DNA from: a virus
IMG/VR virus record: IMGVR_UViG_3300020203_000013
Coordinates: 1 to 64,000 of that record
DNA: 64,000 bases
Reading direction: 5' to 3' (one strand)
How positions within the stretch are numbered: position 1 is the stretch's first letter; each line of letters begins with the position of its first letter. Under the pieces are notes generated by a model. The model had not been told where the DNA came from, searched no databases, and saw only the letters and a program-made list of their open reading frames with translations. Of the stretch, positions 158-23,861 are shown piece after piece. The position numbers and the translations under genes were made by a program.

Positions 158-160
158 TAT

Positions 161-1747: not shown

Positions 1748-1775
1748 GTATCGTCAATAAACCTATAAAACTTTA
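1748..1775 (-). promoter_or_regulatory. sigma28 (FliA)-like promoter upstream of rtcB
   Basis: Minus strand TAAAGTTT-N12-GACGATAC vs consensus TAAAGTTT-N11-GCCGATAA. Confidence 0.6.
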
Positions 1776-1778
1776 GGT

Positions 1779-1979
1779 TTATTTCTCATAGAAGTTTTCT
1801 TCAACCCAGCTTATAGAATACCAATCTACTAAATTGATGTCAAACTTTAATAGGTATTTTTGGATATTTAAGTCTATATGTATCAACTCTACTGGGGAGT
1901 CTTCTGGTAGTTCAAAGCTAGTGATACCACATAGATATCTTTTACCTTTTTTAGAGTGTAAAGTCTTAAGTGTTACCAT
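1779..1979 (-). CDS. Hypothetical protein
   Basis: 66-aa ORF tightly packed in operon. Confidence 0.55.
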   Translation of the reverse strand: MVTLKTLHSKKGKRYLCGITSFELPEDSPVELIHIDLNIQKYLLKFDINLVDWYSISWVEENFYEK

Positions 1980-2395
1980 AGGTTCTTCTTAATAGTACCT
2001 ATTTGCTCTTTAAGATCTTTTACTAGGTTATGCACCTTAAATGCTTTATTTGAAGCCGTGTCCCTCTCAGATTGTTTACCTGATACTCCCCATTGCCTGT
2101 CTCTAAGTCTGTCGCCTTCCCCTTTTAGATAAGAAGACACACTAGCCCTAATAGCTTGAGATAAAGGTAATTTACCTAGCAAGGGATCTATAACCGTTCT
2201 TAAGGTTTCTATGGAATCTTTCTGTTGAGCTAGTAGATCCTTATCCCTCTTCATACTTACTATTACTTTTTCATAAGCTATGTTAGTTTCTCTGCTTTTT
2301 TTATGGGCCTTCTTTAAGGAGTCCTTAGCGGCTAACAACTCCTGTCTCTTAACTGCCAGCTCCTCATGTAATTTTTTTCTGGTTAAGGTGCTCAT
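1973..2395 (-). CDS. Hypothetical coiled-coil protein
   Basis: 140 aa, helical K/E-rich, ATGA overlap with upstream gene. Confidence 0.65.
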   Translation of the reverse strand: MSTLTRKKLHEELAVKRQELLAAKDSLKKAHKKSRETNIAYEKVIVSMKRDKDLLAQQKDSIETLRTVIDPLLGKLPLSQAIRASVSSYLKGEGDRLRDRQWGVSGKQSERDTASNKAFKVHNLVKDLKEQIGTIKKNLW

Positions 2396-3294
2396 AGGAC
2401 TTTATCTATTATCTTTCTAACTTCTAGTAGAGCTTGTTTGTTTTTATCACCGCTAATATCCGTATTTAGTATATCAGATAGATCTCCAAAGTGCATTGCC
2501 AAACATTTCAATAATAGATTCTTTATTTCTTCTTCTCTAATCTCATAAGGAACTACTGTTGAATCTAGGTAGATTTGTTCTAACTGTTTCTCTTTAATAT
2601 TAAACCAATTTTTAATATCTTCGACTGTCCAATTTCCTGCTCTAATGTCTTTATACATCTCTTTATCCCTTTGAAGGTCTAAATTCCCTTCAGTGAGGAT
2701 CTGTTCAGCTTGGCATAGTAGTCTAACTGTATGATACGCAAATTTTGTGTCTAACCCTTTGGCCTTTATATCTTCTTTTCTTTTTGAGGATGTGGATTTC
2801 TTACCACTACTTAGGTTCGCCATCTGACTAAATGCGAACCCCTTACAGGTATGCCAGCACTTCTTGCTAAGAAATAGTTTTCTATTCTCCCTAATAATAG
2901 TACCTATAGAGGTTATATGAGTAATGCAGTTAGCTGGAACAAATAAGGCATCTAATATGTTGGGGTTTGCATTGGCGGCCAATCTGAAGAACTTGACTAT
3001 ATTGAATACGTTTATATCGTACTCTTTTTTATCTATCTGAATATTGTGCTTTTGATAAGAGTTAAAGGTTTTAAAGTCCTCATCAAAGCCATACATTACT
3101 CCACTGGTGTGAGGGAAAACTATAGTCTTATTTGGAATGCAAATTGCCTGTACGTCATGGTCGGCCTTATCTGGATCATTACATCCGTAAGCGGTAGATC
3201 CAGTAATGCACTCATAGTGAATATTATCCTCTATGAAGCTGGGTTGATCTATTAGGTGATCGTGCTTAATTAAACGGTTGACGATTCCTGACAT
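2392..3294 (-). CDS. Pol-beta-superfamily nucleotidyltransferase, RlaP/YcgL-like (RNA repair associated)
   Basis: GSxAYG...DHD catalytic motif, NPNILD, KxxYHxxRLL. Confidence 0.85.
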   Translation of the reverse strand: MSGIVNRLIKHDHLIDQPSFIEDNIHYECITGSTAYGCNDPDKADHDVQAICIPNKTIVFPHTSGVMYGFDEDFKTFNSYQKHNIQIDKKEYDINVFNIVKFFRLAANANPNILDALFVPANCITHITSIGTIIRENRKLFLSKKCWHTCKGFAFSQMANLSSGKKSTSSKRKEDIKAKGLDTKFAYHTVRLLCQAEQILTEGNLDLQRDKEMYKDIRAGNWTVEDIKNWFNIKEKQLEQIYLDSTVVPYEIREEEIKNLLLKCLAMHFGDLSDILNTDISGDKNKQALLEVRKIIDKVL

Positions 3295-3842
3295 TCTAAC
3301 TCCTTTTGTAGAACTTCTTTAAACTGAACCCAAATAGATTCATAAAAATTATTCAAGTCTCTATTAACGTTTGTATAGGTCTCAGGATAATCTCCGTTAT
3401 ATATGTAATCGAAGTTGGATAGATACATTACTTCTCTACAAAATGATTCAGTATTATTAAAACCCTCATCCACTAGGTTAGTAAATTCGTCCCAGAACTC
3501 TCTAGTCTTTTCTTTATTACCTCGTCCATCTCTTCTAAGTTTTAAAAGGTTCTCGTATATTCCTTTAACAGTTTTATCAAAATCAAATTCTCTTTCCAAG
3601 CCTTGACCAAGTTTACCTAAGAAGTAACTCTTATCTAGTGATAGAAGAAACTGTTTAAAGGTATCCGCTCCTATACTAGTCCAGATGTAGCCATAAGCTC
3701 CGTAGGAGGAATTAATTATAAGGCTTCCTCCACCTTCCCAGGGTTCCAGAACTATTCTTGCCCACTCACCCCTTATTTTTAAAGAGTATTGAGGAACATG
3801 CGAAAGCTTTGCTTCTAGTTTAGTATTCATTACTCCTCCCAC
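3270..3842 (-). CDS. Hypothetical phage protein
   Basis: 190-aa ORF (likely start MNTK at 3830, GGAG RBS). Confidence 0.7.
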   Translation of the reverse strand: MGGVMNTKLEAKLSHVPQYSLKIRGEWARIVLEPWEGGGSLIINSSYGAYGYIWTSIGADTFKQFLLSLDKSYFLGKLGQGLEREFDFDKTVKGIYENLLKLRRDGRGNKEKTREFWDEFTNLVDEGFNNTESFCREVMYLSNFDYIYNGDYPETYTNVNRDLNNFYESIWVQFKEVLQKELECQESSTV

Positions 3843-4057
3843 CCTATCTGCTTACTTAACCAAGGTTCCCACCCGCCCATGTCTTTGTGGAAGGTATCAA
3901 ATATAGTTTGCATTACAACAGATTGCTGTTCCCTTTCCTTTTCAAAATTAAGGTCGCTATATTTCAAGTCCGTTCCAGCACTAGGAAGGAATCTTAACCA
4001 CTTACCTAGCTGGACTTTATCTGCCTTTTTAACTTCTTCTAATGTTGGATATTTCAT
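3830..4057 (-). CDS. Hypothetical protein
   Basis: 75-aa ORF directly downstream of sigma28-like promoter. Confidence 0.65.
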   Translation of the reverse strand: MKYPTLEEVKKADKVQLGKWLRFLPSAGTDLKYSDLNFEKEREQQSVVMQTIFDTFHKDMGGWEPWLSKQIGWEE

Positions 4058-4101
4058 ATTAAGTATCTCATTCGGGTTAATTTGTAAACTTCATATTAAG
4101 T

Positions 4102-4129
4102 ATATCGGTCAGGTTAGTTGTAAACTTTA
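4102..4129 (-). promoter_or_regulatory. sigma28 (FliA)-like promoter
   Basis: Minus strand TAAAGTTT-N12-ACCGATAT in the 4058-4137 intergenic gap. Confidence 0.65.
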
Positions 4130-4137
4130 GATTAAAA

Positions 4138-5085
4138 TTACCAATCTACACCAAAAGATAAAAATCCAAACCCTCTTACAGGATCTTCTTGTTCTTTATA
4201 ATCTCTAGTTCTCATGTTATAGATAAATCTAAGTTCATAGTTGTTATATTGAGCCCCAAATCCGCTTTCCAGGCCTCCTATAAAGGGCTCCTTATCTACT
4301 GTGTGGGGAGATTCTGTAAAGATTCCGCCATCATAGTAAATGTTTCTAAGTCTCGCGGATACATAGGGAGTAGAGAATACAAATAGACTTAGTCTATCTC
4401 TTAATAGATTATTTAAAGTAGGTAGATTATAGCCCGCCCTGGCCCCATACGCAAGGGTTCCATCTGTTTGAATGTTGCCCAGTCTTGCCAGCTCAGTGCC
4501 TTGTAAAGCGAAGCCTAGAGACCCTCTGTTAAGTCTGAGATCCTCCCAGGTCTGTTCGTGATCTATATTAACTATAGGTTCCGTGGCTATCTGATTATCC
4601 CACCCATTAGGGCGCTCGTTGAGTCTTCCTATACTACTTAAAGCTCCGTGAACTCCTATTTGGGTTTGTGCTGCCAAGGATGGTCCTCCAGACGAGCCCA
4701 CTCTGATTGTGGTCGAGGTCTTACTCGTTGTAGTCATTATTAACTTCTTCAAGTTTAAAGTTAAGGTTCCAGCATAAGGATTTTCATTTTTTATAATTTC
4801 CTCGTCTTTAATGTTATCGGGAGTGTACATATCCTGTCTTAGGCCAATCAAGTACCTACTGCTTGTTTGGTTGGGATCTAAGTCAGTTGGGACTGGTATT
4901 AATTCAAATACCTTCTGCATTGCTGCTGGAAATTTTTCTGGAGAACCTGAGTAGTTTAATCCTGCACCGTTGGTAAAGTTACCATCGGTACCAGTAAATA
5001 CATCATTCTGAAGGTTAAAAGATACATTAGAGCACCCCTGAAGGAAGAAGCTAGTCAGAGCTATCGTTATTCTTATCCTTTTCAC
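4138..5085 (-). CDS. lpxR: Lipid A 3'-O-deacylase LpxR-family (DUF2219) outer-membrane beta-barrel
   Basis: Signal peptide; ND(x)..D..FTNG, QDMYTP, PYAG, GWDNQI motifs; C-terminal aromatic residue (VDW). Confidence 0.8.
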   Translation of the reverse strand: MKRIRITIALTSFFLQGCSNVSFNLQNDVFTGTDGNFTNGAGLNYSGSPEKFPAAMQKVFELIPVPTDLDPNQTSSRYLIGLRQDMYTPDNIKDEEIIKNENPYAGTLTLNLKKLIMTTTSKTSTTIRVGSSGGPSLAAQTQIGVHGALSSIGRLNERPNGWDNQIATEPIVNIDHEQTWEDLRLNRGSLGFALQGTELARLGNIQTDGTLAYGARAGYNLPTLNNLLRDRLSLFVFSTPYVSARLRNIYYDGGIFTESPHTVDKEPFIGGLESGFGAQYNNYELRFIYNMRTRDYKEQEDPVRGFGFLSFGVDW

Positions 5086-5323
5086 TTCTTTCTTGACTCT
5101 TTTTGGTTTTATCTTTTAAGGTGGTTTTTATATTAACGGTTAAATTATCTTCAAATGAAACTTTATCAAACTTTTTATTATAGAAGTTAGAGTAGTCTTT
5201 CCAAGATATAGATTCTAGAAAATCCTTTACTATCTGTTCTTTATCTACTACCTCAGGGTTATAAAAAAGAGCATACTCTAATTTTCCATCTATGTAAAAC
5301 TTTCTATGCTTACCTGTAATCAT
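5051..5323 (-). CDS. Hypothetical protein
   Basis: 90-aa ORF in operon. Confidence 0.55.
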   Translation of the reverse strand: MITGKHRKFYIDGKLEYALFYNPEVVDKEQIVKDFLESISWKDYSNFYNKKFDKVSFEDNLTVNIKTTLKDKTKKSQERSEKDKNNDSSD

Positions 5324-5324
5324 A

Positions 5325-5783
5325 TTACTTGGGCTCTACTAAATAGATGGTAAGATCTTTATTAGTTATTTTACTTAATCCTAGTATCATTTCGTCTTTA
5401 ACGTCTTCCCAGCTCAGTCCCCCTAGACCACAACCTAAGGCTGGAATAGCTATACTTTTTACAGAGTGACCATGATTTAGAAAAGGAACTAAATTTTTAA
5501 TACCCTGTTTTATCCAGATTAGTTTGGATGGATTTCTCCAATGATCCTTGGTCGCTAGGTGGTATATTATTTTTCCTGACTCTCTAGTCTCTAAAACAGT
5601 CCCTGGTTGCATGTATTTAAAATCACATTTTTCTTTATATGACTTATAAGAGTTAGGGAACTTTTTCTTAAACTCTAGAGCTAGTCCTTTACCCATAACT
5701 CCTACACAATTAACTGGGTTGACTAAAGCATCAGCATCTAATAAAAATATATTACTTTTTGTAGTCGTAATTATAAAGCCCAT
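5325..5783 (-). CDS. Macrodomain ADP-ribosyl hydrolase (Poa1p/DarG-like)
   Basis: NPVNCVGVMGKGLA, TKDHWR, IAIPALGCGLGGLSW. Confidence 0.9.
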   Translation of the reverse strand: MGFIITTTKSNIFLLDADALVNPVNCVGVMGKGLALEFKKKFPNSYKSYKEKCDFKYMQPGTVLETRESGKIIYHLATKDHWRNPSKLIWIKQGIKNLVPFLNHGHSVKSIAIPALGCGLGGLSWEDVKDEMILGLSKITNKDLTIYLVEPK

Positions 5784-5803
5784 GTTTTAAAGTACCCCTT
5801 AAT

Positions 5804-6142
5804 TTATGGACACACCTGATGGGACCCATCTACCATAGCTTGAGCCTCCATGCTTGCTAAGACTCTATTTAACTTTTTTGCACTAACTGATCCCGCTGGA
5901 ACTATCCTGTTTAGCATAGAGAACTTTTCTGGAAAAATACGTTTGCCCGCCTCGTAGGATACTGCATCATCTAGGGTGAATTTATACTTAGTATAATCTC
6001 CTCTAGAATGATCCTTTACTGTTTTTATATTGACCCAAAACTTATCACTGGTCCAAGGTTGCCACCCTTTAGCTTTAATAAGCTCTTCTTTAGTAGATTT
6101 AGACTGCTTGAGTATTAAGTTTAATAACTGATCTGTATACAT
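5804..6142 (-). CDS. Hypothetical protein
   Basis: 112-aa ORF. Confidence 0.6.
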   Translation of the reverse strand: MYTDQLLNLILKQSKSTKEELIKAKGWQPWTSDKFWVNIKTVKDHSRGDYTKYKFTLDDAVSYEAGKRIFPEKFSMLNRIVPAGSVSAKKLNRVLASMEAQAMVDGSHQVCP

Positions 6143-6143
6143 A

Positions 6144-6347
6144 CTAGTGAAAACAAAATATTAAGATTCCAATTATAACGGGTAATCCTATAGATATTGC
6201 AAAAACAATAAATCCATTTCTGTAGAACAGACGTGCATGTTCCTGGCAGTACAGCCAAGATTGCATATTCTCGGGCTGAGTTTCTGGGACTAGTTGAGTT
6301 ACTTTTTTGGTCCCTACTAGATTGCATCCTCTCTTTTCACAGGTCAT
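6144..6347 (-). CDS. Small membrane protein with Cys/His (CxxxxC...CxxH) motif
   Basis: C-terminal hydrophobic helix; ATGA overlap. Confidence 0.6.
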   Translation of the reverse strand: MTCEKRGCNLVGTKKVTQLVPETQPENMQSWLYCQEHARLFYRNGFIVFAISIGLPVIIGILIFCFH

Positions 6348-6724
6348 ATAAATCCTTTAAAAATGTTTCTTATTTGTTTAAAATTATTTAAAAACCCACT
6401 TGGAGTTGTCTGAGTTTTTACCAGATCCTCTGTGCTGGCTTTAAGCCTGTCTAAAGATTTTTCAAGTTCGGCTTGGAGTTTAAAAGGCTTTTCTTTCTGA
6501 AGTTTGGCCGTTTTCTCTGAAGGACTTCTAATTAAGTAATTATCTTTAAACCAAGCCTCAAAAGCTACTTCTTCTATTTCTGGATAGCACTCTGATTCGG
6601 GATCTTTGTCCTTATTATCCTCTAAGACCATGTCTATGTAATCATTAGTAATACCACACATAAAGGCATTATGTATTAATGACCTTTCTCTGTTAGTTAC
6701 AGCTGTTCTTTTAATTTTACTCAT
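6344..6724 (-). CDS. Hypothetical protein
   Basis: 126-aa ORF directly behind the best sigma28-like promoter. Confidence 0.65.
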   Translation of the reverse strand: MSKIKRTAVTNRERSLIHNAFMCGITNDYIDMVLEDNKDKDPESECYPEIEEVAFEAWFKDNYLIRSPSEKTAKLQKEKPFKLQAELEKSLDRLKASTEDLVKTQTTPSGFLNNFKQIRNIFKGFI

Positions 6725-6732
6725 ACAATACC

Positions 6733-6759
6733 TTATCGACTGATTAATTTAAAACTTTA
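6733..6759 (-). promoter_or_regulatory. Near-consensus sigma28 (FliA) promoter
   Basis: Minus strand TAAAGTTT-N11-GTCGATAA (one mismatch to TAAAGTTT-N11-GCCGATAA). Confidence 0.75.
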
Positions 6760-7401
6760 GATAAAATATGATGTTGCGGTTTTAGGATCAGCCACATGGT
6801 TCAAGAATTTATTTAATATAAAAGTCATTATAGGGTTCCTATATATTTTCCAAAGACGGTCAGATCTTTGCTTCCAGTTGGGTTTTCCATCTTTATATCT
6901 GTTCTTATGAAAGATACTAGTACTTATAAATGTATAAAATAATCCAGCACTTATGTACAACTTTAACCTATCAATAAAGGTCAAAGGAGTCAGTATGTAT
7001 GCCCTACTATAACAAAATATAACTTCTGGGTTTCTATGTACTTTAGAGTAATCTAAGACTTTACAGTTTTGTGGTATGTAAACAGTGTAAGGAAATTCAT
7101 AAATACTTTTATCTTCCAATGCCTTATTCAGTTCTTCTTCATCTTTACAGTTGTAGTAATTTAATACATCTTGTAAGTCTTGACCTTCTACTGAATCCCA
7201 ATAACCATCAGTGACTGAATTAAAGTAATGTACTTTTCCAGTAATTTTATTTCTACAGACTCCTGATAGAGGTCCGTCATAATACTTTAAATGCCAAAGT
7301 ATTTCTACATCTTTCCTATCAGTCTTTGGCAGTACTTTACCAGTTTCTTTTAGAATTGCTTCCTGTATTAACTCAAAGTCTTTTCTAAATAAAGGGTCCA
7401 T
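6757..7401 (-). CDS. Hypothetical protein
   Basis: 214 aa; YYDGPLSG motif near the N-terminus. Confidence 0.65.
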   Translation of the reverse strand: MDPLFRKDFELIQEAILKETGKVLPKTDRKDVEILWHLKYYDGPLSGVCRNKITGKVHYFNSVTDGYWDSVEGQDLQDVLNYYNCKDEEELNKALEDKSIYEFPYTVYIPQNCKVLDYSKVHRNPEVIFCYSRAYILTPLTFIDRLKLYISAGLFYTFISTSIFHKNRYKDGKPNWKQRSDRLWKIYRNPIMTFILNKFLNHVADPKTATSYFI

Positions 7402-7412
7402 AGGTTTTTAAT

Positions 7413-7625
7413 TTAACTTAATTTAACTATCTGAATTACTTTTTTATCTTTCAAGATAGCTACTTCATGTCCAGACTCTGAAGCAGTATTAAAGTGATCT
7501 AACAAGGCGATAGCTTTATTGACTACACTTACCTTATTTAGATTAAGTTTCTTGCCTAAGTTATTAGCTAAAGCTGTAACCTGGGGTGTAAGCTCTACCT
7601 TAAATGGATGTTCTTTTTTTGACAT
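7413..7625 (-). CDS. Ribbon-helix-helix (CopG-like) DNA-binding protein
   Basis: FKVEL beta strand followed by two helices (LANNLGKK, KVSVVNKAIALL). Confidence 0.6.
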   Translation of the reverse strand: MSKKEHPFKVELTPQVTALANNLGKKLNLNKVSVVNKAIALLDHFNTASESGHEVAILKDKKVIQIVKLS

Positions 7626-7626
7626 A

Positions 7627-8181
7627 TTATTTTAAATCCTTAGTAGATTCCATTAGCTGTTTAACATTTGCGGAGCAGAATCCATGTTGCCCTCTTTTAA
7701 TAAACTCTATAATTACTCCAGTAAACTTATTTGGTTTAGTGAATACCTGGTCTAATTCATCTTCTGGGCAGGTTAAGATGTCTTTAGTTGTAAATTCAGC
7801 CCACCCTTTAGTTTGCCATTCAACCATCTTAGCTCGTACATCTTCTACCTGGAAGGCACAATGGTGAAAGCCTCCTATTCCTCCTCTAGCCTGAACCCAG
7901 AGGTCTACGACTGACCCTGGTTCCCCTTCTGAGATAAAAATTTCAGGGGCCATATGATATTCATTTCCAGTTGGGAAACCATCTAGTACTTGCGGTAAGG
8001 CCCACTCAAAGGTTAAAGAGTTTACCTTTTCTGGAGGCTCCATAGCTGTACAGACGGCTTTAGTACCATCATCAAATACAACTTCAAACTCTTGTTGAAT
8101 TTTGTATCCAAAGGCTTCCATATAAAATTGAACTGCTTCTTGTCTATTAGGAACCCTAAGAGCTATATGGTCTAAACGCAT
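7627..8181 (-). CDS. VOC/glyoxalase-superfamily metalloenzyme resembling the catalytic C-terminal half of 4-hydroxyphenylpyruvate dioxygenase
   Basis: LDHIAL, GFHHCAFQVEDV, QVFTKP...IIEFIKR..GF...NV..LMES. Confidence 0.75.
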   Translation of the reverse strand: MRLDHIALRVPNRQEAVQFYMEAFGYKIQQEFEVVFDDGTKAVCTAMEPPEKVNSLTFEWALPQVLDGFPTGNEYHMAPEIFISEGEPGSVVDLWVQARGGIGGFHHCAFQVEDVRAKMVEWQTKGWAEFTTKDILTCPEDELDQVFTKPNKFTGVIIEFIKRGQHGFCSANVKQLMESTKDLK

Positions 8182-8444
8182 TAATGAACCTTTTTCTTCT
8201 TTTCATCTGATAAGACATCGGGAAAAGATTCCCTAAGTTTATCTTCCAGTTCTGGAAATATATCTTTTAAATAATCAAATGTGTCACTCTCTATTAAATT
8301 AGACAGCTCTCTTAACTTTGTTAGAATAGGTTTGGGCATTTCAGATGGTAGTTCTTTAGAACTTTTAAATAGAAAACTTTCTAGGTATATTCTAACAAAC
8401 TCAATAGTCTCTAAAATCTCTATTTCTTTTTCAGGTAAAGACAT
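8181..8444 (-). CDS. Hypothetical protein
   Basis: 87-aa ORF in operon. Confidence 0.55.
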   Translation of the reverse strand: MSLPEKEIEILETIEFVRIYLESFLFKSSKELPSEMPKPILTKLRELSNLIESDTFDYLKDIFPELEDKLRESFPDVLSDEKKKKVH

Positions 8445-8446
8445 GT

Positions 8447-8737
8447 TTATTCCTCTATGACTGCTAGTACATCCTCTTCGTGCATAATTAAAACCTTTTG
8501 AGTTCCATCATTAACTTCCGCGCCTGAGAATTTTGCAAACAGAATCTTGTCTCCTACTGACACCTTAACTGGTGCAATTTCTCCAGATTGTAATAACCTG
8601 CCCTCTCCAATAGCTAATACTAATCCTTTTTGTGGTTTTTCTTGAGCGTCTTTTACTAAAATGATTCCACCAGAAGACTTCTCGTCTGATTCATCTCTTT
8701 TAACTACAATTCTACCGTAAAGTGGTCTAAAACCCAT
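8447..8737 (-). CDS. groES: Co-chaperonin GroES
   Basis: RPLYGRIVV, SGGIIL, G.VLAIGEG, VSVGDKILF, EEDVLAVI; GGAG RBS. Confidence 0.96.
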   Translation of the reverse strand: MGFRPLYGRIVVKRDESDEKSSGGIILVKDAQEKPQKGLVLAIGEGRLLQSGEIAPVKVSVGDKILFAKFSGAEVNDGTQKVLIMHEEDVLAVIEE

Positions 8738-8759
8738 ATAAAATATCTCCTAAAAAATG

Positions 8760-8788
8760 ACTATACCAAATTAAATTAAAGATGTCTA
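8760..8788 (-). promoter_or_regulatory. sigma70-like promoter for the groES operon
   Basis: Minus strand TAGACA-N17-TATAGT with extended -10 TG. Confidence 0.55.
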
Positions 8789-8819
8789 ATCTGAAATAAT
8801 AACTTAAGTAGTCAATTAT

Positions 8820-9107
8820 TTAATTGGAGGGGCTAACTTGAGAATACGGCATGAGTAGCATTTGACCGCTATTGCCGGATATTAGTAGGGCTGGATTTTC
8901 TGGAGAGCCTAGTTGAGTAACAGTGACTCCACCTAGCTTTTTAGTAACGTTACGTTTATAAATGGCTTTGATAATTCCTTTAGAGCTAGTTGTCGGGCCC
9001 CAAGCTACATTCTGACCTACCTTAAACCCAGCGGCAATAATCTTAATGGTTGTCTGGGCTAATTCAATCTTATTATCTAATAGTTCTAGCAGGTTATCAA
9101 TATCCAT
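8820..9107 (-). CDS. DUF2945/HVA1 (hypervirulence-associated Tudor-like) protein
   Basis: FKVGQNVAW...G.I..I...V...L.G..V...GSPENPALLI pattern. Confidence 0.65.
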   Translation of the reverse strand: MDIDNLLELLDNKIELAQTTIKIIAAGFKVGQNVAWGPTTSSKGIIKAIYKRNVTKKLGGVTVTQLGSPENPALLISGNSGQMLLMPYSQVSPSN

Positions 9108-9129
9108 GTAAATTATATAGTATTCTAGT

Positions 9130-9157
9130 TAAAGTTTTCAAGGTACTGTGTCGATAA
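9130..9157 (+). promoter_or_regulatory. sigma28 (FliA)-like promoter for the plus-strand island
   Basis: TAAAGTTT-N12-GTCGATAA, 7 nt before ATG at 9165 (near-leaderless). Confidence 0.65.
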
Positions 9158-9164
9158 AAAGAAT

Positions 9165-9452
9165 ATGAAATGGAACGTTGATACACTGTTAAAGGGTTAT
9201 TTTCACAAGGCTACTGTTGAGTGGGGCCAACCTGCTCAAATGTTGGTTGCAGTAGAGGAGATGGCTGAACTAACTAAAGAAATTGTAAAGAATTTAAATC
9301 GGGGCAAAGAGAATGAGGAAGAGATAATAGAAGAACTTTCTGATGTTATTATAATGTGTTTACAGTTAACTGAAATATATGGTGGACAGAAGGTTGAAGA
9401 TATGATAAATAAAAAATTAGAAAGATTTAAAGCTAGGATAGATAATATATGA
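9165..9452 (+). CDS. MazG-like NTP pyrophosphohydrolase
   Basis: EEMAEL...EELSDV motif. Confidence 0.85.
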   Translation: MKWNVDTLLKGYFHKATVEWGQPAQMLVAVEEMAELTKEIVKNLNRGKENEEEIIEELSDVIIMCLQLTEIYGGQKVEDMINKKLERFKARIDNI

Positions 9453-9835
9453 AAAACTTAACACTACTGACTCTAATTTTGCTGCTTAATTTTGCTACCG
9501 CTAATGCCGACTGTATTTCTGGGGCCAAAAATAAAACTGAGTTTAAATTAAGGTTTAATACGGGAGATATTCTCCTAACTGGAGGAATAGGTGATGATAT
9601 CTATGTTACTACCTATTCGCTAATATCACCAAACTCATCTCTCTCCGTGGTGGAAGATTCTTTCTGTAGTTTTGATAATAACGCTATACGAGTGGATGGA
9701 AGACTTATCTCGATAACCTCTGTATTTTATTTTAATCTTTCCGCTAGCAATGCTCAAGGGAACTACATACGTTTACAGAGTAGTTATAACACCCTAGTCG
9801 AATCTTATAATCTAAGTCTAAAAAGAATTAAATAG
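9449..9835 (+). CDS. Secreted hypothetical protein
   Basis: Signal peptide ending ANA-D; two Cys; ATGA overlap. Confidence 0.65.
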   Translation: MKNLTLLTLILLLNFATANADCISGAKNKTEFKLRFNTGDILLTGGIGDDIYVTTYSLISPNSSLSVVEDSFCSFDNNAIRVDGRLISITSVFYFNLSASNAQGNYIRLQSSYNTLVESYNLSLKRIK

Positions 9836-9878
9836 GTCATAAAATTTTAATATCAAATGGAAATGGTAGAAAATCTAT

Positions 9879-10088
9879 ATGAAGAGTCTACTAAGACGTG
9901 CCTTTCATATCTCATTAATAAGTCTTGCAGGTACTTCTATAAATATAATCCTAATTAGTTTTTATACTAAGTTAGTTCCTGACTTACATTTACTTTTAGA
10001 TATACCTACCTTAATAGTTATAGTGTTAATATCTATAGAGATATCCGTTAAGTCAATAGATGTCATCTTTACTAAGAAGGATTTTTAA
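9879..10088 (+). CDS. Small two-helix membrane protein
   Basis: Two hydrophobic segments. Confidence 0.5.
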   Translation: MKSLLRRAFHISLISLAGTSINIILISFYTKLVPDLHLLLDIPTLIVIVLISIEISVKSIDVIFTKKDF

Positions 10089-10224
10089 TTATGGATCTTA
10101 AGGTGTCGGTAAAATAAAACCCTCAGTGTGTTGGATAAGACATATTTAACTGTTCAGGTAATAATTTTAGTATCTATTCTAGCTTAATAGAGTTATTATA
10201 TTTTTAGATAAAAGACTAATGTAA

Positions 10225-11769
10225 TTAACTGAAGTCGTAGAAAATACGATAAACAATTGAAGGATTAGATCCAGTTTCTAATGCATCTAGCCTAATAGCT
10301 AAGTGAATAAAATCCGTGGTCATTTCCCCAGGAGCTACCCCAACTGCAATAGAGTCTAGAGCCGTAGATACTTCTGGCATGTTGTCTTCTGTAGAAAAAA
10401 GATATGCAGGAGGTACGTCAGACGATAGGTCTGTACTGCCTACTACTGCTTTTCTCCACTCAGTCCCATCTGATGCAGGATTTCCTCTTCCAGAGAAGCC
10501 TACAGCGAATTTAGTTCCGTTTCCGCCAGCATAGTGGTTCTGCGCGGTGCCATTAGAGTTTAATCCAAATCGAGGGCTAGATAAAACCGTTGCTCCGCTG
10601 AGGAGATCAAACCAAACCGATTTAGTAGAGCTGTAGGTGGAAACAGTAACTGCCCCAAAATTTAAAACCGTTACTCCTATTGTAGTTGGAACTGGTCCAC
10701 CTGCAATAATTTCAAATCTATCTCTTCTAGTTAAGTTACCTGAGTTAGAGAATGCAATGGTTAGTCCTTTATTTCCAACTGCGGTTCCAGTTACCTGGGA
10801 AACAGTTGAAGCGGAAGATTTACCTTCTCTTAGGCTAGACCAATGGTATCTTGCTGTTCCAACAGCTGAAGATGTTACAGCACCTGAAGAAAATTGTATA
10901 GCTGAACATGTAATTCCAAATAAATCACTATTACCAAATGGGCTGTCTGTAAATCTAATTCGTAACCCTCTTGAGCCTACTGCATAGAAATAATCCGAAT
11001 ACAGTAATTGAACGGCTGCACCTGAGTTATCACCTGATGTAGATGTCCAAGTCATTGTAGGAACGTTTCCAGCTCCGTTATTCATTACTGAGCCTGCGGC
11101 TGTATTAATAGTAACTGTATAAGTTTCATCAAAGGCTTCATTCCATGATCCTGTTGAAGTGCCAGAACCTGTGTAAACGTTTCCGCCTGTCCCAGATACT
11201 ACACCTATTGGGTGAACTGTTCCTACAAGTACTGTATAAATATCTGTAAACTGTCCTTTATAGACTCCACTTAAAGATACTTGTCCAGTAAAAGATCCGT
11301 TATTAGCTGAAGCTAACCCGTTAACTGTATTTACAGTTAAAGATCCGCCTTGCGAAGCTGCCATTCCTAGTAAATGTAAACAATCGTTAGATCCATTATC
11401 TACAGCTACTGTAGAGGCTGTACCTAAAGTACTTGACCAAATTCTAAATTTATTATTTAAATATTCAACTCTACAGTTATCAAATTCTGTTTGAGGTAGT
11501 TGTTTTAGTTTCCATTCAATGTCTCTAGCAACTGCTCTAGCATCCATTGTGGACCCAGAGGTTAGAGTTATTTGCTGTAAAGCATTTCCATCTATAGCTA
11601 CTTGCATTTGATCAGCCGCGCCAGCGGTAATAGTAAACGTCCCTGAAGTAGCTGTCGAAGCTTCTACATATCCCCTAGATCCTGTACCACTAACTGTTTG
11701 ATTAGTGGCATGGGAATAGGTAGTATCTGTGTTAGGATCGAAATAGCACCAACGTGAAATGGACGGCAT
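10225..11769 (-). CDS. Virion structural protein (beta-rich, G/S/T-rich)
   Basis: Composition, GGAG RBS, two TACTAT motifs upstream, last gene of structural block. Confidence 0.65.
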   Translation of the reverse strand: MPSISRWCYFDPNTDTTYSHATNQTVSGTGSRGYVEASTATSGTFTITAGAADQMQVAIDGNALQQITLTSGSTMDARAVARDIEWKLKQLPQTEFDNCRVEYLNNKFRIWSSTLGTASTVAVDNGSNDCLHLLGMAASQGGSLTVNTVNGLASANNGSFTGQVSLSGVYKGQFTDIYTVLVGTVHPIGVVSGTGGNVYTGSGTSTGSWNEAFDETYTVTINTAAGSVMNNGAGNVPTMTWTSTSGDNSGAAVQLLYSDYFYAVGSRGLRIRFTDSPFGNSDLFGITCSAIQFSSGAVTSSAVGTARYHWSSLREGKSSASTVSQVTGTAVGNKGLTIAFSNSGNLTRRDRFEIIAGGPVPTTIGVTVLNFGAVTVSTYSSTKSVWFDLLSGATVLSSPRFGLNSNGTAQNHYAGGNGTKFAVGFSGRGNPASDGTEWRKAVVGSTDLSSDVPPAYLFSTEDNMPEVSTALDSIAVGVAPGEMTTDFIHLAIRLDALETGSNPSIVYRIFYDFS

Positions 11770-11854
11770 AATTTATAAAACTCCTCATGTATAAAATAGT
11801 ACAAGTCGTACCATAGTAATCTTTAGATCTATATTAGTTAAATAGTCCTAAATA

Positions 11855-13759
11855 CTAATTATTAGAGATATTAAATTTGTAAGGGTATATTAACTTATTA
11901 CCTGCAAAATCACTTACTTCTAAGACTAAATTCATAGTCTTACCATACTCATAAAATGGATTGTTTGAAGTAAGATTAGCTATTAGGTTGCCAGTTATGA
12001 TGTCTATACCTGTTATTTCAGCACTTAAGTTGTTTTTTGGCATAGAAACGGTTTTAAAGGAAGTTACCATCTTAGTGTCCTCTTGAGTATCCCCTACATC
12101 ACTTACCTTAATGGCTACTGTTATATCTGTGTCATAAGTTAGGTTATTATCAGGATCGTAACAATATTCAGCCCCCCACAGAAGTTCTGAGTAGAAATCC
12201 CTATAAACGGTATTTCCAGACACTAAGGTCTCTTGAACTACGTGAAACTGTAAATCTGCATCAGTTAGGTAGTTCGGGGTTAGCTGGAAAAATATATCAT
12301 ATTCAATTCCAGAAATTACAGGAACTATGGATACCCCTGATAAGGTTTGTCCATTTAAATTTATATAAGAACCTGAAGCACTAATACCCAGACCATTAAA
12401 GTTATAAAACTTTGTTTTAAAATTGTTAGACCCTGTAACAGTAGTATAGGACTGTAACAGATTTAAGTCGGTATAAACTGCATCTATTTCTATCTGTAGT
12501 CCTGATATAGATAGGTGACTATTAGTTAGTGTTAGGAAGCTAGAGCTATAAGTTAAGTAGTTAGGGGCTGGTACATATAAATCACTTGCTCCTACTTCTA
12601 TATTAATTACTTCCTGAGGGCCGAACAAGTTATCTGGATTAATTAAATAACTTCTTCCTCTTCCTCCACTTATGTTTGTAATAGATAATGCATAGTCATT
12701 ATTTATTAGAGCGCCAGCTGAAATTACAACCTCATCTTCAATAGTGATATTTACAGAATTATAATCTAGTCCAGTATGCTCATCTACTATGTCTATTTGA
12801 ATATTAGTATCAAATCCTACCTGAGTTTGTAAGTGAGTTGGAGTTATGAAAGAAATAAAAGGACTTTGGCTATCTGGTAGTCCTAAAATGGTCGCACCCA
12901 GATTGCCTTGGTCCCAAACTTTGTAGTTATAATTAAATAACGATAAGTTGCCTGATGGAGCTGTCGTATCTCTGGCTTGCCCTGAGACGGTTACAAAGCT
13001 TCCTAAATTGAAAGTTCCTGATGGAGTAAAAGTAAATTGATAAAAACTAGGACTAACTTGTGTAAAAGTTGTTAAACCAATCCCTGATGGGGATATTGCC
13101 AATCCTGAGTTTACTACTTGAATTCCATTTACATAAAAACTTACACTTGTATTGTTTATTGAAGTTAACTCTTGGTCTTTTAAATCAAAAGATATCCCAG
13201 CAAAAGGGTTATTATATGTAGATCCGCTACTAGGTATTATATTAAATAACCTTGGTCCACTTACGTCTTCTGCTACTGCACTTATCGTAGTAACAAACCC
13301 ACCAGTTGCTGTAGCTAAAAAAGTGCCAACCTCTGAGTGGTATTTAGAATACCCCAAAACATTTATATTATTAATAATGGAGTTAAAGTGCTGAGACCCT
13401 ATTAAGGATAATATAACTTTATTAGGATTTTCTGATGGATGTAAGTCTCCTACCACAGCCCTTAAAGATAAGTTTGCTATGGACTCTGTAAAGTCTTGTA
13501 CCTGTATATTTAATATCTTAGTAGGTTCATAAGAGGCTAGGGCTGATATGTTATACTTTAATGAGTTGCTGTCTACAATTACTGTAAAAAAACTATCAGG
13601 TGCTTCAAAAGATGCATAGGCAGATAAATTGTTAACTACAGCCTCTTCAATAGTTTGGAAGGTTCCGATTTGAGTTTTACCTCTAAATCTAGAATTAAAA
13701 GTTCCTATACCTGTAACTGAAGAGTAACTACTTAAACTTATAGAAGATGTAATAGGCAT
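11855..13759 (-). CDS. Virion protein with repeated Ig-like (SbsA/Big-like) domains
   Basis: Repeated D..P.I....P.......I...I.D...G.D..S.....G units. Confidence 0.6.
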   Translation of the reverse strand: MPITSSISLSSYSSVTGIGTFNSRFRGKTQIGTFQTIEEAVVNNLSAYASFEAPDSFFTVIVDSNSLKYNISALASYEPTKILNIQVQDFTESIANLSLRAVVGDLHPSENPNKVILSLIGSQHFNSIINNINVLGYSKYHSEVGTFLATATGGFVTTISAVAEDVSGPRLFNIIPSSGSTYNNPFAGISFDLKDQELTSINNTSVSFYVNGIQVVNSGLAISPSGIGLTTFTQVSPSFYQFTFTPSGTFNLGSFVTVSGQARDTTAPSGNLSLFNYNYKVWDQGNLGATILGLPDSQSPFISFITPTHLQTQVGFDTNIQIDIVDEHTGLDYNSVNITIEDEVVISAGALINNDYALSITNISGGRGRSYLINPDNLFGPQEVINIEVGASDLYVPAPNYLTYSSSFLTLTNSHLSISGLQIEIDAVYTDLNLLQSYTTVTGSNNFKTKFYNFNGLGISASGSYINLNGQTLSGVSIVPVISGIEYDIFFQLTPNYLTDADLQFHVVQETLVSGNTVYRDFYSELLWGAEYCYDPDNNLTYDTDITVAIKVSDVGDTQEDTKMVTSFKTVSMPKNNLSAEITGIDIITGNLIANLTSNNPFYEYGKTMNLVLEVSDFAGNKLIYPYKFNISNN

Positions 13760-13768
13760 TTCATTAGG

Positions 13769-18754: not shown

Positions 18755-18814
18755 AATTTAATACTTTCTATGTACCATAGTACACCTAACCCTCTGTAAA
18801 AACTGAGATTTTTA

Positions 18815-20269
18815 CTAGAAAATATCTTTAGATTTCAAGTAGTTGATGGCTTTTTGAAGGAGTAATAAAGAAGAAAACTCGTCTTTAGCCTCCACATATA
18901 CTCTAAGTTCTGGAGCATTTCCTGATAATCTAAAGTGGATAATTGTATTATCTGGTAAGGTTAACCTAAGACCGTCTAATCGATTTTCTGACCCGCCATA
19001 CGTGTCCAATAACTCCGAACAACTAAGTAACTTATTGATTTTACTAGGGTTTATACCCCTCAACATTCCAGAAGCATTAACCGATCCCAAGTCGTACCAA
19101 GGCTTTTCTATTTTGGTGCTTTTAAGAAAGAATAGATAAGAGAGAATTGGTAATAAAGAGTCCCTAGTTAGAAGTGGTTTTAAGCTTCCCAGTGGGTATA
19201 TTAGCTCATCTCTATGTATGACCCCTCCGTTAGCTTCAAAGCCTACTGTGTTCTTATCTTGAGGCGCTGAGAGCATTTCTTGAATAACGTAAGGTGAGCC
19301 TATCTTAGTCCTTATCACCTCATATTGGGCTATTGAACTAGTCAGGCCATAGTTTTCCAGTTGAGAGTTAACTGTTATTGGGCAAACAGCTATCTTAGCT
19401 CCTGTAAAGATAAGAGATAGTCTTCCTAAGTAATCTCCAGGTAGTGGGTCTCCCTTACTTGTGAACACTAAGGGTCTATCAGCGTCTCCATCAGCAGATA
19501 TAACGCAGTCCACCTCGTTAAGGTTTAGCCAACCTCTAACAGTAGCAAGCGCTTCTTTATTTAAATCTTCTGTGTCTATTGCCATGAAGCTGTCCGATTT
19601 ACCGAAGGCTACTGGGGACGCGCCTAACTCCTTCAATATATCAAAAAATATATTAGCCCCAACACAGCTATGTTTGTATATTCCTACCCTCAATCCCGAT
19701 AAAAAGTCTTCCCCAAATACCCTAGTATACCTATTTCTATACTCAAGAAGGACTTTAGGGTCTTTTTTATTGGACTCTTGAACCTTTAATGTTCCTGACT
19801 TGTTAAACCCTGCCAGGTCTAAAGTAACTGCTTTATTTAAAATGCCCTGCTCATCTGATTTGTTTATTTCTCCATCTAGTTTAAAAAACTTAAGACCATT
19901 TCTATCTTCAGGAATATGACTACCTGTTACCATTATTCCTGGGCACCTGTGATTACTGCAATAGTAGCCTAATGCTGGGGTTGGACAGTCTCCTCCATTT
20001 ATAGGCGTAAGGTCTAGTTGTCTAATGCCGTGTAAAACTGCATTTAAAATTCTAGGACTAGATGCCCTAAGATCTTTTCCAACAACCACTCTTTTAAATT
20101 TAAATCCTGAGTCTTTTAAATACGTTAAAAAGGAAATAGTAAAGCTGGTAACTAAAAAATCATCAAAATCTTTTACTAAGCCCCTCAAACCACTGGTGCC
20201 AAACTTGATATCTTTATCTTTTAGAAGGGATTTTGGAACAGTCTTTAACCGCATAATTTGATTATACAA
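18815..20269 (-). CDS. manB: Phosphomannomutase / phosphoglucomutase
   Basis: FGTSGLRG, TGSHIP..RNGLK (catalytic Ser), DGDADR metal loop, GFEANGG, RLSGNAPELRVYVE. Confidence 0.93.
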   Translation of the reverse strand: MYNQIMRLKTVPKSLLKDKDIKFGTSGLRGLVKDFDDFLVTSFTISFLTYLKDSGFKFKRVVVGKDLRASSPRILNAVLHGIRQLDLTPINGGDCPTPALGYYCSNHRCPGIMVTGSHIPEDRNGLKFFKLDGEINKSDEQGILNKAVTLDLAGFNKSGTLKVQESNKKDPKVLLEYRNRYTRVFGEDFLSGLRVGIYKHSCVGANIFFDILKELGASPVAFGKSDSFMAIDTEDLNKEALATVRGWLNLNEVDCVISADGDADRPLVFTSKGDPLPGDYLGRLSLIFTGAKIAVCPITVNSQLENYGLTSSIAQYEVIRTKIGSPYVIQEMLSAPQDKNTVGFEANGGVIHRDELIYPLGSLKPLLTRDSLLPILSYLFFLKSTKIEKPWYDLGSVNASGMLRGINPSKINKLLSCSELLDTYGGSENRLDGLRLTLPDNTIIHFRLSGNAPELRVYVEAKDEFSSLLLLQKAINYLKSKDIF

Positions 20270-20293
20270 TAACTCTATCAGAAGAGCAAAGAT

Positions 20294-21589: not shown

Positions 21590-21651
21590 TTTATTAAGTT
21601 CCTATACGTTGTTCTTAATAGAACATAGTATATTTAGCCCATAGTTCAAAT

Positions 21652-21681
21652 AAAAAGACCCAGGACTAGTCCCAGGTCTTT
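21652..21681 (-). terminator. Intrinsic terminator after the Cys-rich gene
   Basis: GACCTGGGAC-TA-GTCCTGGGTC stem (G-U pairs) plus T5. Confidence 0.7.
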
Positions 21682-21702
21682 CTAAGTCATTTTACCCTAT
21701 TA

Positions 21703-23778
21703 TTACTTACAAACTTTACTTTTAGAGTGACACTTCTCTATATCATTATCTAACTTATTTTTCAATTTGTTAGTGGTATCGTTACCCTTTCCTTTCGTCT
21801 TGCAAGCAATCCTAGCTTTATGTTGTGCATCTGATGCGTACTCATACAAAGTCTTATTAAGTCTTTGCAGTAAGTCTAGCTTATCTGATATAAGTAGATT
21901 TACACACTCTCCCTCACACACTTGGACTTCTGTAGGAATTGAATTTACAATTTCTACGTAAGTGTTAAAGGTTTGAGTTGCCCCTTTAACTTGCCTCGTA
22001 ACTGTGTTTTTGGCTTTACGATTACAGCCTTGAAACTTTTTATAGTAACTAACTGTTTTAGTATTAAAGATTACTCTGGCTTGTTTAATAAGGTCCACCT
22101 TACTAATTCCAGTTGTAATCAGACCACAAACTTTACAGCTTGATCCATCGCCACCACACACTCCACAAGTATCGACTAGTGCTCCACCATTAGGTGTGCC
22201 AGCGCAGTCTAGACAGTTGTTAGTTCCATTACAGACTCCACATGAATCCGTAAAGCTTGAACCATTTGGGGTACCAGAGCAGTCCTTACATGAACTACTA
22301 TCACCGCCACAAACACCACACTTGTCTAATGTTAGACCTCCATTAGGATTACGAGCGCAATCCAAACAAGATGTCCCGTCACCGCCACAGACTCCACACT
22401 GGTCAACTGTGAGGCCACCGTTTGGCGTACCTTTACAGTCTAAACAGCTCTGTCCATTTCCACCGCAAATTCCGCATTGGTCAACTTGATGTCCACCATT
22501 AGGGATACCAGCGCAATCTAAACAAGTGTTATTTTGTCCTTTACAGACACCACACTGATCAATCTTTGCATCACCTTTTGGTCTTCCTGAACAATCTAAA
22601 CAAGACGTTCCGTCTCCTCCACAGATTCCGCAAACATCGTTCACGGATTTTCCTTTAATACTTCCATAGCAATCTTTACAGCTTTGATCTCTATCGGAAG
22701 ATGTTTTTGGAAGACAGACACCGCATTGGTCAAATGTATTTTGTCCGTTCGGTGTACCAGCACAGTCCTTACAGGTAGAGTTATCTCCACCGCATTTACC
22801 GCACTGATCTACTACCGCACTTCCAAGTGGAACTCCGGCACAGTCTTTTTTACAGACAGTAGCTGTACTTACTGGACTGTTATGCCAAGCCAATAACCTA
22901 CTTCCGCCATTAAATCCTGTGTTGTTATATCTAACTCCACCTTTAAAGCTAGTGATTACTGTTCCAGTAAACGCATCAACTTGAGTAGCGCATGGAGGGG
23001 TTTTAACGCATAGAGTTACAACATTTTCTTTTTCGACCGTTTTGGAATCATCTGGTATTAAAATTGCTGTAGTACTATCGAATAATACTTGTGACTCTAG
23101 GTCGTCAGGTACAGTAAACACCGAGTAAGATGCTAGTCCTACTCTCTGAGAACATAGGCCTGAGTTTGGAGTTAAAGTAAATGTTGTACAGCTTTTTCTA
23201 TCTGGTGCAACTGTTGATGGAACCACACTTCCCAACAATGTCACCACATTTTTTGGATTGATGGCTTTAGCAGTTACTGTTAAACCGTTTAACGTCCAAG
23301 CTAGTGTAGTCGCATTTGTAAAGTCTAGTTGTAGTGTGGTTTGACCTGAGGCACTTGAATCTGATCCAAATACCCAAGCTTCACTGGAATCTTTTGTATT
23401 AAACTTTGTTCCTTGTCCTCTTTGCTCTGGGAGCGGGGAGAATTGATTCTTACTACCAATTGCGATAGTATCTTCTCCACCTACAAAGCTGAAGCTAGCT
23501 TTTTGAGATCTGTTGGAGTTATCTGTAACGCAGTTAAGTATAGGGATGGCCGTTGGCTTTGGTGTCGGAGTAACCGTTGGCTTTGGTGTCGGAGTAACCG
23601 TTGGCTTTGGTGTCGGAGTAACCGTTGGCTTTGGTGTCGGAGTAACCGTTGGCTTTGGTGTCGGAGTAACCGTTGGCTTTGGTGTACAAGTTGGTTTAGG
23701 CTTGGTGGCAAAAGCTAGGCTAGTACAGCAACAGACTAAAGCTAAGCAACAAATAAAACAATTAATAATATTTCTCAT
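21703..23778 (-). CDS. Secreted protein with PT-rich linker and nine Cys-rich DCxGxPxG...DxCGVCGGxxxSC repeats
   Basis: Signal peptide; (TPKPTVTP)n; 9 repeats of about 26 aa counted in the translation. Confidence 0.8.
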   Translation of the reverse strand: MRNIINCFICCLALVCCCTSLAFATKPKPTCTPKPTVTPTPKPTVTPTPKPTVTPTPKPTVTPTPKPTVTPTPKPTAIPILNCVTDNSNRSQKASFSFVGGEDTIAIGSKNQFSPLPEQRGQGTKFNTKDSSEAWVFGSDSSASGQTTLQLDFTNATTLAWTLNGLTVTAKAINPKNVVTLLGSVVPSTVAPDRKSCTTFTLTPNSGLCSQRVGLASYSVFTVPDDLESQVLFDSTTAILIPDDSKTVEKENVVTLCVKTPPCATQVDAFTGTVITSFKGGVRYNNTGFNGGSRLLAWHNSPVSTATVCKKDCAGVPLGSAVVDQCGKCGGDNSTCKDCAGTPNGQNTFDQCGVCLPKTSSDRDQSCKDCYGSIKGKSVNDVCGICGGDGTSCLDCSGRPKGDAKIDQCGVCKGQNNTCLDCAGIPNGGHQVDQCGICGGNGQSCLDCKGTPNGGLTVDQCGVCGGDGTSCLDCARNPNGGLTLDKCGVCGGDSSSCKDCSGTPNGSSFTDSCGVCNGTNNCLDCAGTPNGGALVDTCGVCGGDGSSCKVCGLITTGISKVDLIKQARVIFNTKTVSYYKKFQGCNRKAKNTVTRQVKGATQTFNTYVEIVNSIPTEVQVCEGECVNLLISDKLDLLQRLNKTLYEYASDAQHKARIACKTKGKGNDTTNKLKNKLDNDIEKCHSKSKVCK
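23550..23685. repeat. Perfect 24-bp tandem repeat, about 5.7 copies (CCGTTGGCTTTGGTGTCGGAGTAA), encoding the PT linker
   Basis: Read directly from the sequence. Confidence 0.95.
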
Positions 23779-23833
23779 GTTATTCTAAAAAATTACAAAT
23801 TAATAAAGCACAGTAAAAATGACTGTAACAGTA

Positions 23834-23861
23834 TTATCGTCACAAATCAAAAAAACCTTTA
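23834..23861 (-). promoter_or_regulatory. sigma28 (FliA)-like promoter for the Cys-rich gene
   Basis: Minus strand TAAAGGTT-N12-GACGATAA. Confidence 0.6.

Follow-up and report, generated by a model that had tools for sequence, protein, structure and literature searches.

Candidate sigma-28-type promoters before non-structural genes of an uncultured jumbo phage, possibly read by the host flagellar sigma factor

The DNA considered here, called the window throughout, comprises 64,000 nucleotides (nt) and is the first 64 kb of a linear viral contig of 102,268 bp and about 37% G+C (IMG/VR record IMGVR_UViG_3300020203_000013, G000 below). The contig carries terminase, portal and major capsid genes as well as a long minus-strand run of virion genes; it is a fragment of a jumbo phage, with a CheckV completeness of 36%. 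We focus on five short intergenic sites at which a two-part motif, resembling the promoters of sigma-28 (FliA), the sigma factor for flagella, faces the gene downstream. To judge from their sequence and placement, these sites very probably represent a genuine promoter class of the sigma-28 type that serves non-structural genes. A first-pass annotation of the window had listed all five, and each lies where it was placed, in position and in strand; the names given to the genes behind them (RtcB, RlaP, Macro, LpxR and MazG) hold by Pfam. The sites and their units are the following.

1748..1775 (motif letters 1749-1775), minus strand: candidate promoter P1, TAAAGTTT..GACGATA (cTAAAGTTT-N12-GACGATAc)
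161..1642, minus strand: rtcB RNA ligase gene, the unit behind P1 (Pfam RtcB, 3e-102)
4102..4129 (motif letters 4103-4129), minus strand: candidate promoter P2, TAAAGTTT..ACCGATA (cTAAAGTTT-N12-ACCGATAt)
1779..4057, minus strand: operon behind P2, with open reading frames (ORFs) at 3830-4057 and 3270-3842, RlaP at 2392-3294, and ORFs at 1973-2395 and 1779-1979
6733..6759 (motif letters 6734-6759), minus strand: candidate promoter P3, TAAAGTTT..GTCGATA (cTAAAGTTT-N11-GTCGATAa)
4138..6724, minus strand: operon behind P3, with a macrodomain gene (5325-5783) and the gene of the lipid A deacylase LpxR (4138-5085)
9130..9157 (motif letters 9130-9156), plus strand: candidate promoter P4, TAAAGTTT-N12-GTCGATAa
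9165..10088, plus strand: unit behind P4, with a MazG-like gene (9165-9452) and ORFs at 9449-9835 and 9879-10088
23834..23861 (motif letters 23835-23861), minus strand: candidate promoter P5, TAAAGGTT..GACGATA (cTAAAGGTT-N12-GACGATAa)
21703..23778, minus strand: gene behind P5, 691 amino acids, no assigned function

P2 sits 45 nt 5' of the ORF of 75 amino acids that heads the RlaP operon, and P5 sits 56 nt 5' of the 691-residue gene, a partial homologue of which lies within a motif-rich non-structural region of a related phage (G002, below). The unit behind P4 is the only one on the plus strand in that part of the window. P4 itself lies on the plus strand of a 57-bp divergent control region (window 9107-9165), directed at MazG; overlapping it on the minus strand are TTGAAA-N18-TATAAT (11/12) and a TACTAT before the gene 8820-9107. 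The leader of rtcB after P1 is unusually long, at 106 nt (window 1643-1748), and has a TACTAT 36 nt 5' of the ATG, so that a second promoter or a regulatory leader could be present there.

The motif was searched as TAAAG-N16-18-CGATA, with dinucleotide-preserving shuffles and the reversed pattern as controls. The window holds 6 matches where 0.47 are expected, and 0 of 100 shuffles reach that number. The sixth match, at 39805, has an N18 spacer, lies within a gene and looks like chance. With 4 more beyond the window, the contig has 10 matches, 8 of which have a start codon of the same strand at most 150 nt downstream (10% expected; binomial p = 5e-7). Their spacers are N17 in 8 cases, N16 in 1 and N18 in 1, the last being the intragenic match.

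Relatives of the phage were picked from IMG/VR by terminase.

G001, 51 kb: terminase 60% identical to that of the window phage
G002, 259,994 bp, 95% complete: terminase 47% identical
G003, 72 kb: a terminase relative
G004, 140 kb: a copy of the same phage as G002

Positions 10-88 kb of G000 are collinear with 149-236 kb of G002, and the counterpart of G002 1-149 kb is missing from G000. No cultured relative is close: megablast of the window gave no match, and the large terminase (TerL) is at most 28% identical to those of cultured phages. G002 has 51 matches to the motif versus 3 for the reversed pattern, and 43 of the 51 lie just upstream of genes in the sense orientation (p = 4e-33). They are closely packed in two stretches, 5-65 kb and 237-260 kb, in which nearly every small gene comes with its own copy, and CCGATA, GCCGAT and CTAAAG come out on top when upstream hexamers are ranked de novo by enrichment. 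The G002 consensus begins with an A-rich tract and continues through C-TAAAG-TT, a T-rich spacer and G-C-CGATA to a purine-rich ribosome-binding site some 10 nt on; C precedes TAAAG in 88% of sites, and the extended -10 G and C are present in 63% and 82%, respectively. All 49 sites whose spacing could be resolved are N17, and none is N16. A further phage, G005 (153 kb), has 38 matches versus 3 for the control, most of them with the shorter, canonical spacing of sigma-28 promoters, and three more contigs that encode the same family of sigma factor as G002 and G005 have 1-2 sites per 10 kb. At an orthologous AAA-ATPase gene the motif is kept in both G000 (71800) and G002 (209729) despite diverged flanking DNA. 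The genomes of T4, Chi, 7-7-1 and phiCbK have the motif at control level, so that it is no general property of phage DNA.

How closely the sites follow sigma-28 promoters can be judged element by element. The consensus in E. coli is TAAAGTTT-n11-GCCGATAA (PMC2859248), and the fliC promoter of P. aeruginosa has TCTAAAG at -36..-30 and GCCGATAA at -15..-8 (PMC12784957). Compared with the sigma-28 -35 word TAAAG(TTT), four window sites have TAAAGTTT and one has TAAAGGTT; compared with the -10 word GCCGATAA, the core CGATA is present in all. The -10 element of sigma-28 promoters is extended by GC, either base of which is enough alone (PMC12784957). The two bases before CGATA are GA in P1 and P5 and GT in P3 and P4, P2 reads ACCGATA, and a G or C is kept in the extended -10 at every site in G000. 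The resemblance to the extended FliA consensus asserted in the first-pass annotation is thereby borne out for the -35 word, the -10 core and the extended -10 rule alike. The spacing is another matter. The canonical n11 (TAAAG-N16-CGATA) occurs in P3, the spacer of which is one base shorter than those of P1, P2, P4 and P5, and the latter four of the five have N17. The 12-nt spacer is thus real and dominant in the window, but its use as a sign of a variant sigma factor does not stand on spacing alone, because a proven sigma-28 promoter, that of hctB in Chlamydia (C. pneumoniae), has a spacer longer by the same one base (PMC3333780). With hctB as precedent, the departure from n11 makes it less likely that the sites are of the sigma-28 type but is compatible with it.

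The geometry of fliC (PMC12784957) would place the start of transcription (+1) 8 nt past CGATA. Over 99 pooled sites from four phages, an ATG stands at this distance in 16, at 7 nt in 3 and at 9 nt in 2; at 14 of these 16, the ATG begins an ORF of 60-234 amino acids. Two such starts are in G000: that of MazG (9165; window 9157-9167), exactly 8 nt past the CGATA of P4 and so on the predicted +1, and that of a gene of 138 amino acids ending at 92813 (contig 92813-92822). The ATG of the gene 6344-6724 behind P3 lies at 9 nt (window 6724-6733). An ATG fixed at the predicted +1 suggests leaderless mRNAs, that of MazG among them, and the whole pattern is internal, indirect evidence for a start 8 nt past CGATA with leaderless transcripts at a subset of sites. 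The sequence CGATA-N6-ATGT(A/G)A recurs in G002 (13058, 21396, 57062 and 249455) and in G005 (1119 and 2458), apparently as a conserved start-site region giving rise to one-codon mini-ORFs.

The core structural genes had been described as lacking the motif, and this holds, with TACTAT standing in its place. TACTAT is the top upstream hexamer in G000, found in 16 of 49 regions versus 2.5 expected. It consists of one -10-like element, no conserved -35 accompanying it, and often takes the form A/G-TACTAT-A/T/G; most virion transcription units have it 20-80 nt ahead of them (window 10225-63924), for example at 11796, 18777, 21625, 24587, 26326, 39250, 50423, 60576, 61561 and 62220. Bases T-12, A-11 and T-7 of the group-1 -10 element are retained. 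The hexamer is enriched upstream of genes in G000, G001, G002 and G005, and no enrichment was seen in two unrelated motif-bearing phages, G012 and G014. TACTAT is a candidate late promoter, possibly the target of an RpoD-like phage sigma factor; since the clade that has this sigma is a single lineage, the association between the two is weak. Promoters of the sigma-70 type are enriched 2-3 fold upstream of genes in G000, G002 and G005, and in window 1-12000 their matches are at chance level (42 versus 38.9).

The sigma factor in question is encoded by the relatives. Its alignment, family A1, has as first member (P0001) a G002 protein of 323 amino acids (78288-79259) with weak Pfam matches to sigma-70 region 2 and region 4 and a match to TIGR02937 at 1.6e-9. 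The gene is present in G002, G004 and G005, and the family has at least 41 members of 323-470 amino acids and 43-68% identity, from metagenomes only, several of them on contigs of 100-255 kb; tblastn found no homologue in cultured phages. The domains follow the order sigma2-sigma3-sigma4, TIGR02937 matches 41 of 41 members; the relatives' protein, which was the one tested, has both domains for reading promoters, 2 and 4. An AlphaFold model of the G002 sigma (predicted local distance difference test score, pLDDT, 85.5) aligns over its full length to the chains of SigA, sigma-S, sigma-32 and sigma-28. The family does not score as FliA/WhiG: TIGR02479 matches only 12 of the 41 members (best E-value, 5e-6), and P0001 scores 19.1 bits where the cut-off is 189.6. 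The hhalign probabilities are 95% for RpoD, 87% for RpoS and 57% for FliA, and among solved structures the A1 profile matches RpoD at 1.9e-8, with FliA outside the top 60 PDB matches. By these profile comparisons, the A1 sigma is closer to RpoD than to FliA.

Within the family, region 2.3-3.0 is almost invariant and includes the motif Y.F.Q.CLYKIR..YQYCLRNA.QIKTPYYIQRG.MH; region 2.3 has Tyr-Lys in place of the Trp-Trp of sigma-70. Positions 299, 300 and 302 of the recognition helix (region 4.2) vary, while TAAAG is constant, and to derive the specificity of the A1 sigma from single residues would be too uncertain. Before its gene in G002 and G005 stand sigma-70-like hexamers, and the TAAAG/CGATA motif is absent there. 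Neither the Pfam models of regions 2 and 4 nor tblastn with the relatives' sigma found a sigma factor in G000, a contig 36% complete; this is to be expected, because the gene lies at 78 kb of G002, outside the part syntenic with G000. A T4 gp55-like late sigma, FlgM and a FliA/WhiG protein were not found in the phages examined, nor was the RNA polymerase beta-subunit domain (PF00562) in G000 or G002.

Clusters of the motif also occur in other uncultured phages. A scan of IMG/VR with the canonically spaced pattern gave many multi-match contigs among the matches listed. Such scans provide examples and not a census, and a scan with N17 pre-selected contigs of that spacing (G006 and G007), so that their spacing is not counted as evidence. 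Six phages found in this way are listed with their reversed-pattern controls.

G009, 169 kb, complete: 18 sites versus 1 for the control
G010, 243 kb, complete: 14 sites versus 2
G011, 35 kb: 11 sites versus 0
G012, 87 kb, terminal repeats: 5 sites, all in the first 10 kb, versus 2
G013, 236 kb, complete: 7 sites versus 1
G014, 118 kb, terminal repeats: 4 sites versus 2

The sites in these phages lie 20-50 nt before a ribosome-binding site and ATG, and most of those in G009, G012 and G014 are canonically spaced. Six-frame searches with hidden Markov models detected no protein of the sigma-70 family in G009, G012 or G014; G010 and G013 have a sigma of the extracytoplasmic function (ECF) type, and no A1-family sigma was detected in them. 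Weak sigma-like ORFs in G009, G010 and G013 were rejected as A1-family sigma factors. For G014 and G012, rIIA-like and DNA searches found no close cultured phage. The presence of motif clusters in phages without the A1 sigma argues that the sigma-28-like class is independent of it. In G007, G012 and G017, the spacer of the motif contains TTGAC(A), and TAGTAT or TATAAT comes after CGATAAG in G012; here, sigma-28-type promoters and others of the sigma-70 type may be superimposed.

Our preferred reading, which we hold tentatively and at a little under an even chance, is that these sigma-28-type promoters are read by the sigma-28 holoenzyme of the host as part of a programme of three promoter classes, in a jumbo-phage lineage in which no RNA polymerase of its own was detected. 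The first class would consist of a few sigma-70-like promoters. The second would be the sigma-28-like promoters before RtcB, RlaP, the macrodomain/LpxR operon, MazG, small genes and the AAA ATPase, composed of a -35 C-TAAAG-TT(T), a -10 (G/N)(C/N)CGATA(A) and a start 8 nt past CGATA. The third would be the single-element TACTAT before virion genes. In motile cells with free FliA, the host sigma-28 holoenzyme would turn on the second class at once, and the RpoD-like sigma of the relatives would then serve the late TACTAT promoters. Host sigma-28 is supported by the agreement in -35 word, -10 core, one-base rule of the extended -10 and start distance, by the canonically spaced clusters in genomes without a detectable sigma (G009, G012 and G014) and the clusters in G010 and G013, where no A1-type sigma was detected, by the RpoD-like nature of the A1 sigma with its variable contact positions in region 4.2, and by the group-1 -10 bases that TACTAT retains. 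The first-pass annotation had left the choice between host FliA and a FliA-like sigma of the phage; the clusters in sigma-less genomes favor the host, and while the relatives do encode a sigma, it is not FliA-like. The accompanying idea of Bdellovibrio, or a predator in its attack phase, found nothing in its support. It is also possible, though we would sooner doubt it, that uncultured phages of many kinds, this jumbo phage included, form a class whose pre-structural genes are wired to the host flagellar sigma and that the RpoD-like sigma, a later acquisition in this clade, reads TACTAT only.

Several points weigh against host sigma-28 as the reader. The spacer exceeds the canonical length by one base at four of the five window sites and at 49 of 49 spacing-resolved sites in G002 while the sigma-less phages are canonical, and the N17 spacing hints at a different reader in this clade. 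Dependence of some 50 promoters on FliA would tie infection to host motility. Full-text searches (FliA/sigma-28 phage promoters, the consensus words and jumbo-phage sigmas) returned no published precedent, and the cultured flagellotropic phages Chi, 7-7-1 and phiCbK do not have the motif above control level. The presence of FliA in the host is an assumption; alignments of the major capsid protein and the sigma gave no match in GTDB genomes, no tRNAs were found in the window, and look-alikes of LpxR point weakly to a host in the Pseudomonadota. The DNA runs that contain the window stretch belong to metagenomes of microbial mats and freshwater. That six-frame searches detected no sigma is no proof of its absence, and the invariant region 2.3-3.0 of the A1 sigma would also suit a conserved extended -10 such as GCCGATA.

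This last property belongs to a different reading, unlikely in our judgment, in which the motif is read by a phage sigma of the A1 family whose gene lies in the roughly two thirds of the genome absent from G000. In such a cascade, host sigma-70 would transcribe the sigma gene, the phage sigma with the host core would read TAAAG/CGATA as middle promoters in the manner of SPO1 gp28, and another factor would read TACTAT. G002 and G005, with 51 and 38 sites respectively, have the sigma gene, and each of the five sigma-bearing contigs that reach 10 kb has the motif. The sigma gene has sigma-70-like hexamers of its own in place of the motif, and with G000 syntenic only with G002 149-236 kb, a gene at 78 kb would be missed. 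In the clade to which this sigma belongs, the non-canonical N17 holds strictly for G002 and predominates in G000. A full-length sigma fold, as modeled, could read a two-part promoter, and TACTAT has no -35; region 2.3-3.0 is nearly invariant, as noted. Sigma factors are also on record in jumbo phages that have no RNA polymerase (PMC7824862). However, a sigma that is not FliA-like would have had to converge on the -35, the -10, the extended -10 rule and the start distance, and its presumed base-contact positions in region 4.2 vary. The same clusters are found in complete phage genomes without an A1 sigma, co-occurrence being limited to one clade; TACTAT would be left without a reader, and the 102-kb contig has no homologue.

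The sigma and appropriation factors of phages are often too divergent for family models, as with T4 gp55, MotA/AsiA and SPO1 gp34. Another phage factor might read the motif, be it a sigma of the sigma-28 kind that has diverged greatly or a protein by which a host sigma is re-targeted, maybe shared by the motif-bearing lineages; we regard this as improbable. Spacers are conserved within lineages (TTTTCTGAGAT in G005 and TAGATT.CAAA.CT in G009), which could mean extra contacts but is equally explained by duplication of promoter-gene cassettes. Although most proteins of these phages are without a family match, leaving room for such a factor, no candidate was found, and one more unknown is needed than for host sigma-28 or the A1 sigma.

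That the sites are something other than promoters, whether AT-rich intergenic DNA that matches by chance or a repeat serving a different purpose, for example protein binding or packaging, is hardly credible given their strong excess over shuffles and the reversed pattern (statistics on which chance was rejected), their strict sense orientation 8-60 nt before start codons, sharp spacer length and conservation across phages with diverged flanking DNA, the ATG spike at the predicted +1 and the control-level counts in T4, Chi, 7-7-1 and phiCbK.

Set beside the bacterial promoters of sigma-28 (FliA, SigD and WhiG), the phage sites share (C)TAAAG(TTT), CGATA(A), the extended -10 G/C and the implied start distance, and the canonical spacing is found at one site of the window and at most of those in G005, G009, G012 and G014. 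Unlike their bacterial counterparts, they are in a phage genome, the genes behind them are not those of flagella or chemotaxis but ones for RNA repair, a macrodomain protein, LpxR, MazG and small products of unassigned function, and four of five window spacers are one base longer, as in hctB of Chlamydia. Like SPO1 (gp28 for middle, gp33/34 for late genes) and T4 (early, middle and late), this lineage has separate promoter words for non-structural and structural genes and no phage RNA polymerase (here none was detected), and the relatives' sigma is apparently under a sigma-70-like promoter. In contrast to both, the non-structural class copies the consensus of a host alternative sigma rather than a phage-specific word, and no gp55-, gp28- or MotA-like factor is recognised. 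Bacillus phages reportedly encode sigma factors that mimic the host sporulation sigmas and are clear homologues of SigF and SigG; the idea that a phage sigma can have the promoter specificity of a host alternative sigma is common to both cases, but the A1 sigma is not a recognisable homologue of FliA. Jumbo phages of 'group 2' were described as having no RNA polymerase and a fairly complete RpoD-like sigma, thought to recruit the host core (Iyer et al., 2021; PMC7824862). No promoters were named there, whereas here two candidate classes and a sigma family of at least 41 members are delineated.

Temporal promoter classes are well known in phages. A phage promoter class that copies the sigma-28 consensus is undescribed as far as our literature searches show, and phages that put a gene class under the host flagellar sigma may have no earlier example. 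If host FliA is the reader, phage expression would be coupled to host motility, infection reading out the motile state in which FlgM is exported and FliA is free, and dozens of phage promoters would be set against the flagellar regulon; this would bear on host range, the ecology of phages and flagella, and competition for alternative sigmas. If the reader is instead the phage sigma, an RpoD-like sigma would have converged on FliA specificity, a case for the study of how sigma specificity evolves. In either event, the motif provides a simple marker of transcription units in many uncultured jumbo phages and predicts leaderless mRNAs.

Three further observations concern genes away from the promoters. 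The large terminase ORF has 838 amino acids in G002 (194856-197372) and 607 in the window (57721-59544), and terminase matches extend over 2.4-2.5 kb in L001 and L002 (the latter being G002 194856-197372); the G002 terminase likely carries inserted DNA, for instance an intein or homing element. In the window, two pairs of neighboring ORFs (26603-27228 and 52884-55328) each match one longer G002 protein (204 and 725 amino acids) and may be split genes, frameshifts or cases of programmed frameshifting. Lastly, a phosphoglucomutase/phosphomannomutase gene with all four Pfam domains (window 18815-20269) lies among virion genes with Ig-like domains.

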